Origin: Clostridiaceae bacterium
GTDB lineage: Bacteria > Bacillota > Clostridia > Oscillospirales > Butyricicoccaceae
DNA length: 64,000 bases
Assembly (NCBI GenBank): GCA_018383195.1
Contig: JAGZOP010000001.1
Span: 131,153 to 195,152, forward strand
Direction: 5' to 3'
In this document: positions 1,859-45,186 of the stretch, piece by piece
Position numbering within the stretch: position 1 is the first letter of the stretch
How the letters are laid out: every line of letters starts with the position of its first letter
Translations under genes and position numbers: made by a program
The notes under the pieces: model-generated
What the model saw: only the letters and a program-made list of their open reading frames with translations
What the model was told of the DNA's origin: nothing
Database searches by the model: none

Positions 1859-3070
1859 CTATCGAATGACAATGCGCCCATTTTCCCGCGCCAGCACGCC
1901 GTCCAATTCCAGCATGGTCAGTGCTGTCATCACGCGCGAAGCGGGCAAATCGGTCACTTCCAGAATGCCTTCCGGCGTATCCGCGCCGTCTGCAACCGCC
2001 TGCACAATCTGCTTCTGCTCGTCAGACAGTTCCGCAGGCACCGGATGCGGTGCGGATACCGTCTGCGCCGCAAGCGGTTCTTCCGTCTTTTTCTGCAAAA
2101 TTTTATCCCACAGGTCGGATGGCTTCTCTTCTTCTCCTGCATCCTCGGGTTCATCCCAAACCGGTTCCGCCATCTGCTGCGGAAAAACGCTCAATTCCCC
2201 AATGATATCCCGCGGTTCGGTGACCAGTGCAGCTTCTCCATCCCGAATCAAACGGTTGCATCCTGCCGAGCCCGGCGCATTGATTGCGCCCGGAACCGCA
2301 AAAACTTCACGACCCTGATCGAGCGCCAGACGCGCCGTAATGAGCGCACCCGAGCGCAGCGGCGCCTCCACAACCAACACGCCGCGAGACAGACCGCTGA
2401 TGATGCGGTTGCGAATCGGAAAACGGAATCCGTCATGCGGCGTTCCGGGTGGGTTCTCGCTGATGACTGCGCCCGAAAGCAGAATATCTCCCATCAGGAA
2501 ATTATGCTCGGGCGGATAGCAGATGTTCAGCCCTCCCGCAAGCACAGCAATGGTTTTGCCGCCGGCTTTAAGCGCGCCGCGTGCAGCTGCACCGTCCGCG
2601 CCAAGCGCCATGCCGGAAACAACCGTACATCCGGCTTTCGCCAGCCCATACCCGAAGTGCTCTGCCGCCATCAGCCCATAGGGTGTTGCCTTTCTGGTGC
2701 CGACAATCCCAATTCCCGACGTCTGTTCCAAATCGGGCAGCTTGCCCTTGACATACAGGACAAGCGGCGGGTCTGGAATACGGCGCAAAATGGATGGGTA
2801 TTCCGCATCGGCAAGCGTCACGATGGAAATGCCCAGCGCTTCGCAGTCATAGGCAATCGCCCGCGCCCGCTCCATGCTCTTGTCGCTGAGCGCATCGACC
2901 TGCCGCTTGGTCAGACCGGTCGATGCAGCCAGTTCCGCGCGGCTCATTGCATAAAGGTGTCCCGGCGTGCCAAAACGGTCAAGCAGCTGATTTTTGACAA
3001 GCGCCGTGAGTTCCTCTTTGGCTGCCAGCCACAGCCAGTATGCCCGCCCGCTCATCGGGTCATCTCCCAA
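1859..3070 (-). CDS. dprA: DNA processing protein DprA/Smf
   Basis: 403 aa. It has the Rossmann core motifs GIVGTRKATPYG and ...VVSGMALGADGAAARGAL. The conserved topA-dprA arrangement supports the call. Confidence 0.9.
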   Translation of the reverse strand: MGDDPMSGRAYWLWLAAKEELTALVKNQLLDRFGTPGHLYAMSRAELAASTGLTKRQVDALSDKSMERARAIAYDCEALGISIVTLADAEYPSILRRIPDPPLVLYVKGKLPDLEQTSGIGIVGTRKATPYGLMAAEHFGYGLAKAGCTVVSGMALGADGAAARGALKAGGKTIAVLAGGLNICYPPEHNFLMGDILLSGAVISENPPGTPHDGFRFPIRNRIISGLSRGVLVVEAPLRSGALITARLALDQGREVFAVPGAINAPGSAGCNRLIRDGEAALVTEPRDIIGELSVFPQQMAEPVWDEPEDAGEEEKPSDLWDKILQKKTEEPLAAQTVSAPHPVPAELSDEQKQIVQAVADGADTPEGILEVTDLPASRVMTALTMLELDGVLARENGRIVIR

Positions 3071-3885
3071 ATCAGGATGGATGCGGCGACGCCTGCGTTG
3101 AGCGATTCGGCACGTCCTGCCATCGGAATCACCATTTTCCGGTCGCAGAGTTCGAGCGCCTGACGGGTGACGCCTCGCCCTTCGCTGCCGATAATCACTG
3201 CCGCGCCATGCAAATCGAGCGTCGTGGACCGAACGCTGTCCGGCTCGAGCGCTGCCGCATAAACAGGCAGACCGCGTGTTTTGAGCGCTGCAATCGCTTC
3301 CGCAAGGGGCATATGATAAACCGGTTGGCGAAATGCGGCGCCCATGGTCGCACGCACAACCTTGGGTGCGGTCGGGTCAGTGCAGCCTTCGCATAGGATT
3401 ACGGCATCCAGGGCAAAGGCATCCGCCGTGCGCAAAATGGTTCCCAGATTGCCCGGGTCCTGCACGCCGTCGAGCAGGACCGCGCCCGAAAGTGCCTCCG
3501 GCAGATCGTCCGCAAACCGTTTTGGCATCGCGCACGAAAAAATCACGCCCTGCGGGGTTTCTACATCGCTGGCAAGCGCGAAAACCTGCGGCTCTGCTTC
3601 AAAAAGCCGCGCACCCTGCGCTTCCGCGCGCGCAATCAGCTCCCCGTTTTGTGTATCTCCTGTGCGCAGCAGAATGCTTTTGACCATAACACCTGAGGAC
3701 AGCGCTTCATAGAGCATTTTTTCGCCCTCGCACACCATCTCACCGGCGCCCTGCCGGTATTTTTTTTCACGCGCCAAACGTGCCAGATGGCGCAGGGTGG
3801 TATTGTGCTTACTCTCAATCCGCGTAATCACGAGCCGTCCCTCATTTCTAAAGTAATATGCCGAAAGCCTGAACGCATGAAGCAT
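3052..3885 (-). CDS. TrmH/SpoU-family RNA 2'-O-methyltransferase
   Basis: 277 aa. It has the SpoU methylase motifs (LDGVQDPGNLGTILRTADAF, IIGSEGRGV, ESLNAGVAASI) and an N-terminal substrate-binding-like segment. Confidence 0.8.
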   Translation of the reverse strand: MLHAFRLSAYYFRNEGRLVITRIESKHNTTLRHLARLAREKKYRQGAGEMVCEGEKMLYEALSSGVMVKSILLRTGDTQNGELIARAEAQGARLFEAEPQVFALASDVETPQGVIFSCAMPKRFADDLPEALSGAVLLDGVQDPGNLGTILRTADAFALDAVILCEGCTDPTAPKVVRATMGAAFRQPVYHMPLAEAIAALKTRGLPVYAAALEPDSVRSTTLDLHGAAVIIGSEGRGVTRQALELCDRKMVIPMAGRAESLNAGVAASILIWEMTR

Positions 3886-41565: not shown

Positions 41566-42221
41566 AACGGATTTTCTTTGTGCTCCCCCTGCTTTTCCTG
41601 CTGGCAGGCTGCGACCGTCAAAGCGTGCGGATTCAGGATGCCGGTCAGCTTCTTCCCGTGTCCGCGCTTGCCATCGATACCCATGCGTCCGGCTATCAAA
41701 TGACGGTAGAAAGTATCCGGCAGGACAGTTTGGACGGCGATGCCGCGCCCGCATACTTTTCCGTGGAAGGCGCAACCTTTGACGAGCTGTTCCAGCGCGC
41801 AGATGCACTGCTTGCGAGCCGCCTGTACCTCAGCCATGCGCAGGCGATTGTTGTCAGTCCGGCGGTGGTGCAGACCGCCCGATCTGCGCTGACCCAAAGC
41901 CTGCTCGCCCGTCCGGACGCACGGCTTACCCTACGCATCGCGGTTGCACGCGATGCATCGCCGGACGCGGTGCTGCGTGCACCGGCGGTATCCGAAGATA
42001 TTCCCGGAATTGCCCTCGCCGCACTGCTTGATGAACGCGCCAAGGATGGCTCCATGGCAGACTGTCCCCTGTTTCGTCTGCTCGACCGGCAAACCGGCGG
42101 TGAAAGCTTCTCCTTGCCTGTACTCCGGCTGAGCAGGGACGGGCATGCCGCTCCGGACGGCAGCGTGCAGGTTGCGGGCGGTATGCTGACCTTTACGACC
42201 GGAGGTGCCTCCCATGCGTGA
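41562..42221 (+). CDS. Germination lipoprotein, GerC-family N-terminal domain only (short)
   Basis: 219 aa starting at MKRIFFVLPLLFLLAGCD, which has a lipobox. The track ORF starts 46 codons upstream inside gerA. It is shorter than typical GerC proteins, which are about 370 aa. Confidence 0.6.
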   Translation: MKRIFFVLPLLFLLAGCDRQSVRIQDAGQLLPVSALAIDTHASGYQMTVESIRQDSLDGDAAPAYFSVEGATFDELFQRADALLASRLYLSHAQAIVVSPAVVQTARSALTQSLLARPDARLTLRIAVARDASPDAVLRAPAVSEDIPGIALAALLDERAKDGSMADCPLFRLLDRQTGGESFSLPVLRLSRDGHAAPDGSVQVAGGMLTFTTGGASHA

Positions 42222-43083
42222 TACGATCTTCCCCCGCTGGCAAGGCGCGTTTCTCGCACTTTTTCTGCTTGCTGACGGGCTTTATCTGCCTGCATCGCCC
42301 GAAACCGTGCGTACGCTTGCACTCGGATGCGTGCTCAGCACGCTTTTGGCGTTTTTATGGCTGAGCATGCTCAGCGCTCTGCGGGAGCGTGACTTTGAAA
42401 GCTTATGTCTGCACCGTTTTCCAGACTGGCTGACGCGCATGCTGTTTCCCCTCGTCGGCATCGCCTGTATAATCTGCACAGCGCAGTCGCTTGTACGTTT
42501 GACCGCATTCTGGCACGAAACCGCTTTTTCCTCCCTGCCGCGTTGGACCGGTGCTTTGGTTTTGCTCCTCATCGGTTGGCGCACCGGGAAACGCGGCCGC
42601 ACCGCAGTCGCCATGTGGAGTTATCCGCTCTTGCTGTTTGCCGGAGGCGTGACCTTGCTGTCGCTTCTTGTGACACTGGAAGCCTGCGACCCCGCACATC
42701 TCCCTCTGGTATTGCAAACCATGACCATCTCCCCATCTATGCTCGGGAAGTTTGGCTGGTTTGTTCTACCGCTGCTGTTGTGCGCACAGGGAACGCAGAT
42801 TCCCGCAACACGCGCGTGCACGCTCGGCACATTTCTCGGCGGCGTGGGACTGACGCTCATCGCGCTGCGTGCATGGTTGGTACTGGGGGCAGGAGGGACA
42901 CAGCTTCCCTATCCCGCATTTTCCTCTGCGGGCGTATTCTCGGTCGGAGATTTTTTGCAGCGCGGAGAGGTTTTATTCGGATGTGCGCTTGCACTGTGCG
43001 AAGCCGTGCGGGTTGCCCTGCTTGTAACACTGGCACGTACTGCATTTCAGATGATTCGGCGCAAAAAGAAGACCGCTTCGTAA
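42205..43083 (+). CDS. Germination receptor B-subunit-like permease (short GerAB-like)
   Basis: 292 aa polytopic membrane protein with about 8 TM helices. Assignment rests on its position after the A- and C-subunit genes. It is shorter than typical GerAB proteins, which are about 360 aa. Confidence 0.55.
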   Translation: MPPMRDTIFPRWQGAFLALFLLADGLYLPASPETVRTLALGCVLSTLLAFLWLSMLSALRERDFESLCLHRFPDWLTRMLFPLVGIACIICTAQSLVRLTAFWHETAFSSLPRWTGALVLLLIGWRTGKRGRTAVAMWSYPLLLFAGGVTLLSLLVTLEACDPAHLPLVLQTMTISPSMLGKFGWFVLPLLLCAQGTQIPATRACTLGTFLGGVGLTLIALRAWLVLGAGGTQLPYPAFSSAGVFSVGDFLQRGEVLFGCALALCEAVRVALLVTLARTAFQMIRRKKKTAS

Positions 43084-43086
43084 GAA

Positions 43087-43132
43087 GCGGTCTTTCGTAT
43101 GGCTGTTTTGATTGAAAAGCGGGTTTCCTCCG
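43087..43132. terminator. Hairpin/terminator at the gerB-like 3' end, at the start of a GC-rich hairpin series
   Basis: The sequence AAAAGCGGGTTTCCTCCGCTTTTC forms the first stem. Further perfect stems follow at CCGCGCTCtgcgGAGCGCGG, GCAGGCtgcgcGCCTGC and CCGGGGcataCCCCGG, all lying between 43133 and about 43205. Confidence 0.6.
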
Positions 43133-43233
43133 CTTTTCAAAGGGGATTCCGCGCTCTGCGGAGCGCGGGCAGGCTGCGCGCCTGCACTGCGCCGGGGCAT
43201 ACCCCGGACCCATTGTTTCCCCCCACACAACGT

Positions 43234-43567
43234 GATCCTCAGTTCTTCAGACTGTGGATCGGAGCAGGCCAAACAGTCCAGTGGACTGTTTGGCGGCAGC
43301 TCTGCCACAGGCATGCTGCCGGAAAAGGACATCCCTGGACAGCGCCGCTTTTTCCGCGAGCAGCGCCGCACCAGCGCGCGACGATCCTCAGTTCTTCAGG
43401 CTGTGGATCGGAGCAGGGCAAACAGTCCGGTGGACTGTTTGGCGGCAGCTCTGCCACAGGCATGCTGCCGGAAAAGGACATCCCCGGACAGCGCCGCTTT
43501 TTCCGCGGGCAGCGCCGCACCGACACGCGACGATCCTCAGTTCTTCAGGCTGTGGATCGGAGCAGGG
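43234..43567. repeat. Tandem direct repeat, period 149 bp, 2.25 copies, each beginning with the last 10 codons plus stop of the UPF0210 gene
   Basis: Copies sit at 43234-43382, 43383-43531 and 43532 to about 43567. Copies 1 and 2 are about 94% identical. Each unit starts gatcctcagttcttcag[ag]ctgtggatcggagcagg, which on the minus strand encodes PAPIHSLKN plus a stop. The third copy is the genuine 3' end of CDS 43537..44916. Units contain internal hairpins (aaacagtccaccggactgttt, cggcagcatgcctgtggcagagctgccg). Confidence 0.85.
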
Positions 43568-44916
43568 ATTCTTCCCCCGCGATGAATAAACTTCGCCGGA
43601 GACTGGGTCGGCACCGGCATAATCGGCGCGGAGCCGAGCAGACCGCCGAACTCTACACTGTCGCCCACCGTCTTGCCGATGGCAGGAATAACGCGCACTG
43701 CTGTGGTCTTGGTATTGACGACGCCGATGGCGATTTCGTCTGCAATCAAGCCGGAAATGACTTCTGCACTGGTGTCGCCGGGAACGGCAACCATGTCGAT
43801 GCCGACCGAGCAGACCGCGGTCATCGCTTCAAGCTTCTGCATGGTGAGTACGCCTGACTGCACCGCTGCAATCATGCCTTCATCCTCGGAAACCGGAATG
43901 AACGCGCCCGACAAGCCGCCGACATTCGAGGACGCCATGACGCCGCCCTTCTTCACCGCATCATTGAGCATGGCAAGAATCGCTGTGGTGCCGCAGGCGC
44001 CGCAGGTTTCGAGGCCAACTTCCTCCAGAATGCGCGCCACCGAGTCGCCGACCGCCGGAGTCGGCGCAAGCGACAAATCGACAATGCCGAACGGCACACC
44101 GAGACGGTCGGATGCAATCGAGCCGACAAGCTGTCCCATACGGGTAATCTTGAACGCGGTCTTTTTGATGATTTCCGCAACCTCGCCAATCGAGCAGTCG
44201 CCTGCGCGGCGAATCGCGGACTGAACAACACCGGGTCCGGATACGCCGACATTGAGCACGCATTCCGGCTCACCGATGCCGTGGAACGCGCCCGCCATGA
44301 ACGGATTGTCGTCCACTGCATTGGCAAAGACGACCAGCTTGGAGCAGCCCATGGACTGATTATCCTTCGTCAGTTCCGCAGTGGTCTTGATAATATGACC
44401 CATCAAAGAGATTGCATCCAGGTTGATGCCTGCCTTGGTGGATGCAACATTGACCGAGGAACAAACCAGATTGGTCTCTGCCAGCGCCTCCGGAATGGAG
44501 TTGAGCAGCACCTCATCCCCCTTGGCAAATCCTTTTTGCACAAGCGCAGAAAAGCCGCCGATAAAGTTGACACCTGTGGTTTCCGCTGCGCGGTCGAGTG
44601 TCTTTGCAATCGGAACATAGCTGAGCGCATTGGTAGTCGCGCCGACCATTGCAATCGGAGTCACCGAAATGCGCTTGTTGATAATCGGGATACCCAATTC
44701 GCGCTCAATCTGTTCACCGGTTGCGACCAGTCTTTCTGCACGGCGGGTAATCTTATCATAAATCTTATCGCAGAGCACATGGATATCGTCGCTCGCGAGA
44801 TCGCGCAGCGAAATTCCCATTGTAATGGTACGGATATCCAGATGCTCCTCCTCGATCATTTTAATGGTCTCGAGGATGTCGCTGGTATTAATCATTGCCA
44901 CTGTTCTTTCCCCCAC
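43537..44916 (-). CDS. UPF0210 (DUF711) family protein
   Basis: 459 aa. Its length and sequence character match the UPF0210/DUF711 family, which is usually paired with a UPF0237 ACT protein, as it is here. The true start may be [14 protein letters not shown], 7 codons in from the track start. Confidence 0.75.
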
Positions 44917-45186
44917 TCAAATGCGGTGCATCGCGTTGAAAATATCCTCGTGCATGGTGTGAATCTTCATACCAAGTTCTTCACCGTTCTTGTCCAGCAA
45001 ATCAGCCAGCGCCGTAAAGTCCACCGTACACTTGTCGATGTTCACCAGCATAACCATGGCGAACATATCATCCATAACATTCTGGGAGATGTCCACAATG
45101 TTAACGTTATGTGCGGAAAGCGTTTCGGAAATTCTGGCAATAATGCCGGTGCGGTCCTTGCCCACAACAGTAATGACTGCGCGCAT
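44917..45186 (-). CDS. ACT-domain protein of the UPF0237 family (partner of UPF0210)
   Basis: 89 aa, starting MRAVITVVGKDRTGIIARISETLSAHNVNI, which is an ACT fold. It lies immediately upstream of the UPF0210 gene on the same strand with no gap. Confidence 0.7.
   Translation of the reverse strand: MRAVITVVGKDRTGIIARISETLSAHNVNIVDISQNVMDDMFAMVMLVNIDKCTVDFTALADLLDKNGEELGMKIHTMHEDIFNAMHRI

Follow-up and report, generated by a model that had tools for sequence, protein, structure and literature searches.

The 64-kb window analysed here is the whole 64,000-nucleotide stretch taken from contig JAGZOP010000001.1 of a Clostridiaceae bacterium belonging to the Butyricicoccaceae. On its minus strand, downstream of a gene for an 89-aa ACT-domain protein (44917-45186), it carries a gene for a UPF0210 (DUF711) protein, which groups with proteins of Butyricicoccus and Agathobaculum, and which converges with a spore-germination permease-like gene. 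The spacer between these two genes is filled with hairpins, namely H3 and H4, three hairpins of a module called C, and two terminator-like ones, and it contains one tandem array (43234-43567) with a period of 149 nt, 2.2 copies, 95% matches and no indels, as determined with Tandem Repeats Finder. Read on the minus strand, in the direction of UPF0210, the order of the modules is A1-B1-A2-B2-A3-C (Table 1), where A is a 36-nt repeat holding the end of the gene and B is a 113-nt element without genes.

A repeat search returned two full 149-nt copies (43234-43382 and 43383-43531), which are 95% alike, and a 35-36-nt piece present three times, with starts at 43234, 43383 and 43532. The 51-nt core of the 149-nt unit occurs twice in the window, as compared with 0.00 occurrences expected from shuffled sequences. 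Module A consists of a single C, the codons CCT GCT CCG ATC CAC AGC CTG AAG AAC TGA, and GGATC, and its translation, PAPIHSLKN followed by a stop, corresponds to the last ten codons of UPF0210. Thus, the initial annotation of this DNA, which had described a 149-bp tandem array reiterating the last ten codons of the gene, with the true gene end as a partial copy, was correct in this respect, and so it was in assigning two hairpins to each unit (H3 and H4 were located in both) and in noting that a minus-strand open reading frame (ORF), 43239..43526, ends with the same nine residues, PAPIHSLKN. The two copies of B differ at seven sites (T/C, T/C, C/T, C/T, G/A, C/T and C/G, B1/B2). No terminal inverted repeats were found in B; it has only internal hairpins, and its two ends are unrelated to each other.

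Table 1. Modules, hairpins and genes in and around the spacer downstream of UPF0210 (coordinates refer to the window; a dot marks a feature with no strand assigned).
Feature	Coordinates	Strand	Evidence or remark
UPF0210 (DUF711) coding sequence	43537..44895	-	Pfam DUF711, E 3.3e-192; stop codon at 43537-43539
A1, gene-proximal 36-nt direct repeat	43532..43567	-	holds the UPF0210 gene end and stop codon
B1, 113-nt gene-less element with H3 (43443-43470) and H4 (43419-43441)	43419..43531	-	covariance model R1, 147 bits; compensatory changes in hairpins
A2, middle 36-nt repeat	43383..43418	-	repeat search; identical to A1
B2, second copy of the element with H3 (43294-43321) and H4 (43270-43292)	43270..43382	-	covariance model R1, 140 bits; 94.5% identical to B1
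A3, distal 36-nt repeat	43234..43269	-	2/36 bases differ from A1; both differences also in the distal copy of L001
Module C, three hairpins, closing GGGG/CCCC stem, CCGCAG loop in the third hairpin, GAATCCCC tail	43138..43224	-	fold z-score -5.3
Terminator-like hairpin, 11-bp stem TTGAAAAGCGG...CCGCTTTTCAA	43112..43140	.	inverted repeat; fold
11-bp hairpin overlapping the ger permease stop codon, followed by CTTTTTGCG on the minus strand	43069..43094	.	terminator scan; inverted repeat
Convergent spore-germination permease-like gene	42205..43083	+	Pfam Spore_permease, 22.5 bits (cut-off 23.4)

Four known kinds of array were considered, and each fails on the features tested. The 149-nt period is not a multiple of three, which rules out a coding repeat, and an array of clustered regularly interspaced short palindromic repeats (CRISPR) should have unique spacers, whereas either way of reading this one gives identical 'spacers', of 36 nt or of 113 nt; both had been dismissed initially for the same locus. 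In the case of a diversity-generating retroelement, the differences between B1 and B2 do not lie at template adenines and only 30 nt of the unit are coding; no search for a reverse transcriptase was made. Finally, the proposals that the end of the gene was duplicated together with its terminator, or that the array is a series of terminators, do not fit the terminator scan, which detected no hairpin followed by a T-run within 43234-43567 and only one such site on the strand of the gene, at 43094-43069.

As the initial annotation had considered possible, the number of units varies between lineages. The two-copy structure, in each case with its own point differences, is present in L181-L183, three independent polished long-read contigs with 96-98.6% identity to the window, so the array is not an assembly artefact; they were reached by an exact look-up of the neighbouring 89-aa ACT protein, exact look-ups of the UPF0210 protein with two alternative start codons having given no match. 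In contrast to these two-unit sequences, the human-gut contig L123, which is 94% identical to the window at the nucleotide level, has one unit and the order A-B-A-C, and the underlying state of L184, a related human-gut contig, is likewise A-B-A-C. The sister species represented by L001 (97% amino-acid and about 85% nucleotide identity in UPF0210) has A-B-A'-C, with a repeat of about 56 nt whose two copies are about 80% alike. Derived bases (GCC..., AGTCTG) common to the distal A of the window and that of L001 suggest that a single, old insertion event underlies both, and A3 is probably the displaced original end of the gene. No B was found behind UPF0210 in 78 other species sampled (L002-L080). 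Since A-B-A-C cannot be reached by plain tandem duplication, and since B is unlike the coding sequence that precedes A, this element must have arrived as an insertion, and simple iterative duplication, as proposed in the initial annotation, does not explain the array.

In L184, exact tandem repeats of 126 nt inside the DUF711 gene and of 141 nt at the gene end were also seen (2400-2560 and 3037-3213), and the identity of this contig to the window alternates between 98.6% and 91%. We considered a different duplication junction and a longer protein in this contig, and rejected them, as the extra repeats are exact and the contig is strain-chimeric; they are most likely k-mer-length assembly artefacts from a mixture of strains.

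The marks that distinguish the 5' ends of B1 and B2 are constant by position in all strains; at the 3' ends, the variants in the H4 loop and in the base next to it have changed places between B1 and B2 when the window is compared with L181. This mosaic pattern indicates that the copies exchange sequence and that the A repeats recombine. Of the idea that the locus is a recombination hot spot that alters the C-terminus, only the recombination is borne out, as all seven element-bearing sequences (the window, L181-L184, L123 and L001) encode the same end, PAPIHSLKN-stop, and the next A copy is out of frame in the window; alternative C-terminal exons are thereby discounted as well. In L001 (1622-1810), the period of the repeat is a multiple of three and the frame is open from the TAA through B to a second PAPIHSLKN-stop, so that read-through would add about 50 residues. 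This frame is not conserved in the window, on which ground a reading-frame function was rejected, and it is probably a coincidence. Three short-read contigs from Logan (L186, L188 and L189) break off no more than a few bases from the UPF0210 stop codon, which would be expected of a repeat that disrupts assembly.

B is not confined to UPF0210, contrary to the notion of a gene-specific structure. A degenerate search of metagenome contigs for H4 led to L094, which, judging by the 76-77% identity of its UvrC to that of B. pullicaecorum, comes from another member of the Butyricicoccaceae. Both L094 and L193 carry B-like copies in the spacer between the HPr gene and uvrC and at the uvrC/rsmD junction (104-117 bits with R1, the covariance model of B), and both sites are empty in close relatives, namely L194 (UvrC 91% identical) and L191, L192 and L195 (86-87%); the two insertions are thus recent. 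They lie 2 kb apart and are strongly unlike each other, including their H3, which means that they came from different source copies. The insertion in the HPr-uvrC spacer is bracketed by imperfect target copies of about 20-25 nt, and that at the uvrC/rsmD junction by imperfect target copies of at least 30 nt, which include the first ten codons of rsmD. In the empty site uvrC and rsmD overlap, and the duplication keeps both reading frames whole. A stretch of 15 nt beside H4 in one uvrC copy was taken for a carried-over UPF0210 end, but it is native rsmD coding sequence in the empty L194, and the idea that B carries part of A was dropped. Although UvrC of L193 and L094 is 99% identical, the B-like element of L193 contains an additional nested module of at least 55 nt, which indicates that small hairpin modules are currently mobile in the Butyricicoccaceae. 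This nested module (...AGCCCGTAGGCC...CGCGCTGGGCGCGGAT...; L193 3190-3264, compared with L094 2380-2400) has a homologue behind UPF0210 in B. pullicaecorum DSM 23266 (L021 5370-5420). Where they cover uvrC, contigs from the L094 lineage are short, the longest measuring 3.3 kb (58 member sequences).

Hairpins H3 and H4 are 98-99% paired over 13 distinct copies of B (RNAalifold and pair counts), and ten of their pairs are changed on both sides, as compared with 3.7 in shuffled alignments and at most 3 in slid controls. G-U pairs are absent from both, so that neither the strand nor the folded form, RNA or DNA, is decided by the pairing. Module C, the older of the modules, belongs to a 130-nt unique hairpin stretch running into the two terminator-like hairpins, and shows compensatory changes in 10 of 17 pairs across seven loci; fold z-scores in the region range from -2.2 to -5.3. 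With R2, the covariance model of C, the module was found behind UPF0210 in at least nine species of Butyricicoccaceae; in other organisms it also lies behind glyQS and further genes. When the window is compared with L001, the fourfold-degenerate sites of UPF0210 show 56% identity (n=249), whereas identity is 81% in the B core (95 nt) and 80% in the C core (81 nt), these values for the cores being upward-biased, as they come from local alignments; the unpaired spacers could not be aligned. As far as such comparisons go, the covariation and the conservation above that of fourfold sites indicate that selection acts on the hairpins. Three-hairpin modules of the C type with a GAAATCCCC tail were also seen at L021 5426-5515 and 5681-5772, L043 5378-5467, L005 5365-5455, L112 6313-6407 and L089 1436-1526, and the modules recur in other combinations in L021, L043, L089 and L112. 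The C-type module could be an undescribed structured motif of the 3' untranslated region (UTR) or a motif similar to repetitive extragenic palindromic (REP) elements. The comparison with Rfam suggested in the initial annotation yielded no matching family: with permissive thresholds the best scores in the window were 14-21 bits against thresholds of 37-137, and with gathering thresholds only tRNAs were detected at ten loci with related elements.

Five hairpins separate the array from the permease-like gene, three in C and the two terminator-like ones; hairpins had been announced there initially, and only their number, given as four, was wrong. The one that overlaps the ger permease stop codon is, judging by its structure and the tract that follows it, likely to be the terminator of the UPF0210 transcript. 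A scan of 42500-44200 for promoter-like sites was negative. The permease-like gene is the last of a GerA / GerAC / permease operon, in which Pfam GerA and Spore_GerAC_N match the two upstream genes. This position is the main reason for regarding it as the permease of a GerA-type receptor, and in public contigs the gene is without a recorded Pfam hit. In many relatives (L002-L080), the gene order breaks directly after UPF0210, the next gene belonging to the ger operon, being spoIIGA-sigE-like or rumA-type methyltransferase-like (by N-terminal sequence only), or encoding a sensor kinase or others, so that the 3' side of the UPF0210 operon appears as a rearrangement boundary. In L043, the apparent start of a candidate IS3-type transposase lies about 300 nt downstream of UPF0210.

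H4, a hairpin with a 10-bp stem (CAAACAGNCC-NNN-GGNCTGTTTG), also follows a variable hairpin in contigs from environmental metagenomes. Its distance from the gene upstream, one for tRNA-Gln, Glu, Thr, Arg, Lys or Ser, is 70-130 nt, and the element around it, about 170-230 nt long, is flanked by 15-24-nt repeats of the tRNA 3' end, which end with CCA. Such loci were seen in unrelated metagenomes (L106 3849-4060, L166 700-1060, L161 1690-2000 and L085 7450-7800, and additionally L164 11800-12100, L180 350-1070, L148, L118 and L081); L180 has a 283-nt tandem array of H4 elements, and L148 a flanking repeat of 64 nt. Behind glyQS in L112 (6230-6570), a composite of H4 and a C-type module, about 270 nt long, stands between two copies of the 31-nt terminator hairpin of that gene, of which only the distal one keeps its T-run, and the related L121 is without the second copy. 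A different dispersed family occurs in high-GC human-gut contigs and accounts for about 60 of 100 pattern matches (L083-L178, e.g., L084 1380-1550), for instance between aroB and aroQ. In this family H4 caps a long hairpin (...GAGTTCCGCACGA-H4-TGCGAGCAGGACTG...), the sequence of the outer stems varies between copies while their pairing is kept, and flanking direct repeats were not found.

Taken together, these results are best explained if the array is the trace of a small mobile hairpin element that was afterwards doubled by recombination, rather than a device for varying the C-terminus or a terminator array. The fuller account that we favour, and in which we place about half of our confidence, is that of a small insertion element with a long target duplication, which was doubled by unequal crossing-over and now resides in a structured 3' UTR. 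According to it, the hairpin-bearing B would have inserted right behind UPF0210 in the ancestor of the window species and its sister species, and A would be the copy of the target that brackets the insertion, 36 nt long now and about 56 nt originally. Every A copy supplies the last ten codons and the stop, so that UPF0210 remains whole no matter which of them forms its end. From an ancestral state A-B-A-C, unequal crossing-over between A copies, or a second accretion, would have led to A-B-A-B-A-C in the window lineage. B itself may be a member of a small mobile family in the Butyricicoccaceae, characterised by long imperfect target duplications of 20-56 nt and a lack of terminal inverted repeats. 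By analogy with microCIMEs (miniature cis-mobilizable elements), Campbell-type, attachment site (att)-like integration would be the best-fitting origin and the most likely source of the target copy, in a mechanism of insertion that we infer. The array would be transcribed as part of the UPF0210 3' UTR, upstream of the real terminators, where its two hairpins would most plausibly act at the 3' end of the RNA to stabilise or insulate it, in the manner of REP-like elements.

Several results weigh against this account. A single site-specific integrase would hardly be expected to use three different targets. When the 100 ORFs that follow UPF0210 in about 70 relatives were surveyed for families occurring at least twice, no integrase or recombinase appeared as a partner enzyme, which, with a few kb covered per genome, is a weak test, and a BLAST comparison of the whole spacer with phage and plasmid records gave no match. 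With R1, one locus was detected in the 64-kb window, L001 gave the sole match in 660 kb of the loci of relatives, and 22 kb of L191 gave no match, so B is rare in the sequence scanned, and the 'dispersed family' rests on one other lineage; with R2, too, the window yielded one locus and the 22 kb of L191 yielded none. Contig ends truncate the right-hand target copy at uvrC/rsmD, the upward bias of the local alignments bears on the conservation of the B and C cores, and the role in the 3' UTR is read from sequence. In other searches, an exact 44-mer of B had no match in one genome per species, the H4 pattern had none in viral contigs, and a tRNA-linked H4 element gave only chance-level matches to plasmids. 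When the reading frames of B were concatenated and compared with a set of 5.8 billion proteins, 0 of 8000 candidates reached E 0.01. No named repeat family of this kind in Clostridia came up in the literature searches.

A stricter version of the att-type origin would have a complete integrative and conjugative element (ICE), integrative and mobilizable element (IME) or prophage, with the 3' end of UPF0210 in its attP and a tyrosine or serine recombinase, of which only the two ends are left as a microCIME, the second unit having been added by tandem accretion. The direct repeat that contains the gene end and restores the ORF, the imperfection of its copies, usual also for attL and attR, and the 149-nt unit, within the published range of 130-220 bp for elements that have been described in tandem (PMC7563491), all agree with it. 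So do the H4 elements between CCA-stopping copies at tRNA 3' ends, the classic targets of integrases. However, no integrase-bearing element was seen behind UPF0210 in the roughly 70 relatives, no phage or plasmid matched, and the two recent, dissimilar insertions at uvrC, absent at 91% UvrC identity, would require two full elements to integrate and decay quickly, so that we consider this version unlikely, though not far-fetched. That B is extragenic, palindromic and modular, that other hairpin modules (C, and the one within B in L193) occur at several loci and nest in each other, and that L094-lineage contigs are always short near uvrC, as expected of multi-copy flanking repeats, would rather suggest a dispersed repeat of the REP/BIME (bacterial interspersed mosaic element) or MITE (miniature inverted-repeat transposable element) type, moved by a transposase and flanked by its target-site duplications. 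Yet B lacks terminal inverted repeats, its target copies of 20-56 nt are variable and imperfect, in contrast to the short fixed duplications of known MITEs, the REP elements moved by RAYT transposases make no target duplication, and the copy number seen is very low; this explanation appears decidedly unlikely.

Two further explanations do without mobility. Replication slippage could have duplicated the gene end and its native downstream sequence locally, without any function, and the step from one copy to two is just such an event: the copies are head-to-tail, as in a minisatellite, with two units in the window and L181-L183 and one in L123, L184 and L001. As an account of the origin of B this is already contradicted by the one-copy state, which is A-B-A-C and not A-B-C, by the dissimilarity of B to the coding sequence upstream of A, by the B-like insertions elsewhere with empty sites in relatives, and by the conservation of B above fourfold sites, and we give it hardly any credence. 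Alternatively, the array could be a structured RNA selected by the host, either a small RNA derived from the 3' UTR or a regulatory element of the ACT-UPF0210 operon, with its dosage set by copy number and the copied gene end incidental. In favour of this speak the compensatory changes that maintain H3, H4 and the three hairpins of C, the conservation of B and C at about 80% as compared with 56% at fourfold sites, the fold z-scores, and the recurrence of C behind UPF0210. Against it, Rfam and the promoter scan were negative, the hairpins without G-U pairs leave strand and RNA or DNA form undecided, the UPF0210 genes of most relatives are without B, and the same modules stand behind unrelated genes (glyQS and uvrC), so that there is little likelihood of it being the right explanation.

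On the favoured account of an inserted and doubled element, the array is a modest curiosity rather than a new gene-regulating device, but it has consequences for annotation, as the repetition of a gene end further downstream may record an insertion that copied its target and need not be a sign of alternative C-termini or regulation. Arrays of this kind break short-read assemblies, and as several public contigs end exactly at the UPF0210 stop, their copy number is mostly invisible. The locus also offers a clean series of filled and empty sites for tiny hairpin elements in gut Butyricicoccaceae, with long imperfect target copies that do not fit standard transposase models. We can tentatively extend this to the proposal, which we think has only a small chance of holding, that B and the tRNA-adjacent H3-H4 elements form one undescribed, widespread class of gene-less miniature elements (about 110-230 nt), which insert at the 3' ends of tRNA and protein genes, regenerate the gene end through a target copy of 15-56 nt, can pile up in tandem, and carry a nearly invariant H4 as the recognition site for a recombinase or host factor. 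The link between them, a 25-nt hairpin and a similar architecture, is suggestive. If it is true, a widespread undescribed class of miniature integrative elements would have been met here; if it is false, the array would be an ordinary decayed insertion and duplication.

Among known systems, MITEs are, like B, small and non-coding, and close relatives may differ in whether they have them; insertion sequences of the IS1634 group produce long, variable direct repeats, which shows that such target duplications are enzymatically possible. B differs from these systems in that it has no terminal inverted repeats, that no transposase was identified, and that its flanks (about 20-25 nt, at least 30 nt and 36-56 nt) are imperfect copies and not a short fixed duplication. 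The REP/BIME elements of enterobacteria and the pneumococcal BOX elements are short intergenic stem-loop modules, often located between convergent genes, mosaic, with variable tandem sub-units, present in tens to hundreds of copies per genome without long target duplications, and are thought to stabilise mRNA 3' ends and to serve as recombination join-points for duplications. The array shares with REP/BIME the short imperfect extragenic palindromes and the mosaic arrangement; in contrast to them, only one locus was seen per 64 kb, and each insertion comes with 20-56 nt of duplicated target. Genomic islands integrate at tRNA 3' ends, and their att sites are copies of the tRNA 3' end that stop at CCA, like those that flank the H4 elements, but the latter are gene-less and only about 170-230 nt long, and their relation to B, beyond the H3-H4 pair, is conjectural. 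Of the published elements, the microCIMEs of Streptococcus salivarius come closest to the array; these remnants of integrative elements are gene-less and att-flanked, measure 130-220 bp, lie at the 3' end of rpsI, rpmG, fda or rplL, and in some cases stand two in tandem (PMC7563491). Contrary to them, the array described here has no related ICE, IME or integrase that we could find, its B has homologues at three targets and two compensatorily kept hairpins, and its H4 recurs in unrelated bacteria. It nevertheless resembles microCIMEs in being gene-less, in its position at the 3' end of a gene, in direct repeats that contain the gene end and leave the target gene intact, and in its size, with two tandem units, a period of 149 nt and 113 nt between the repeats.

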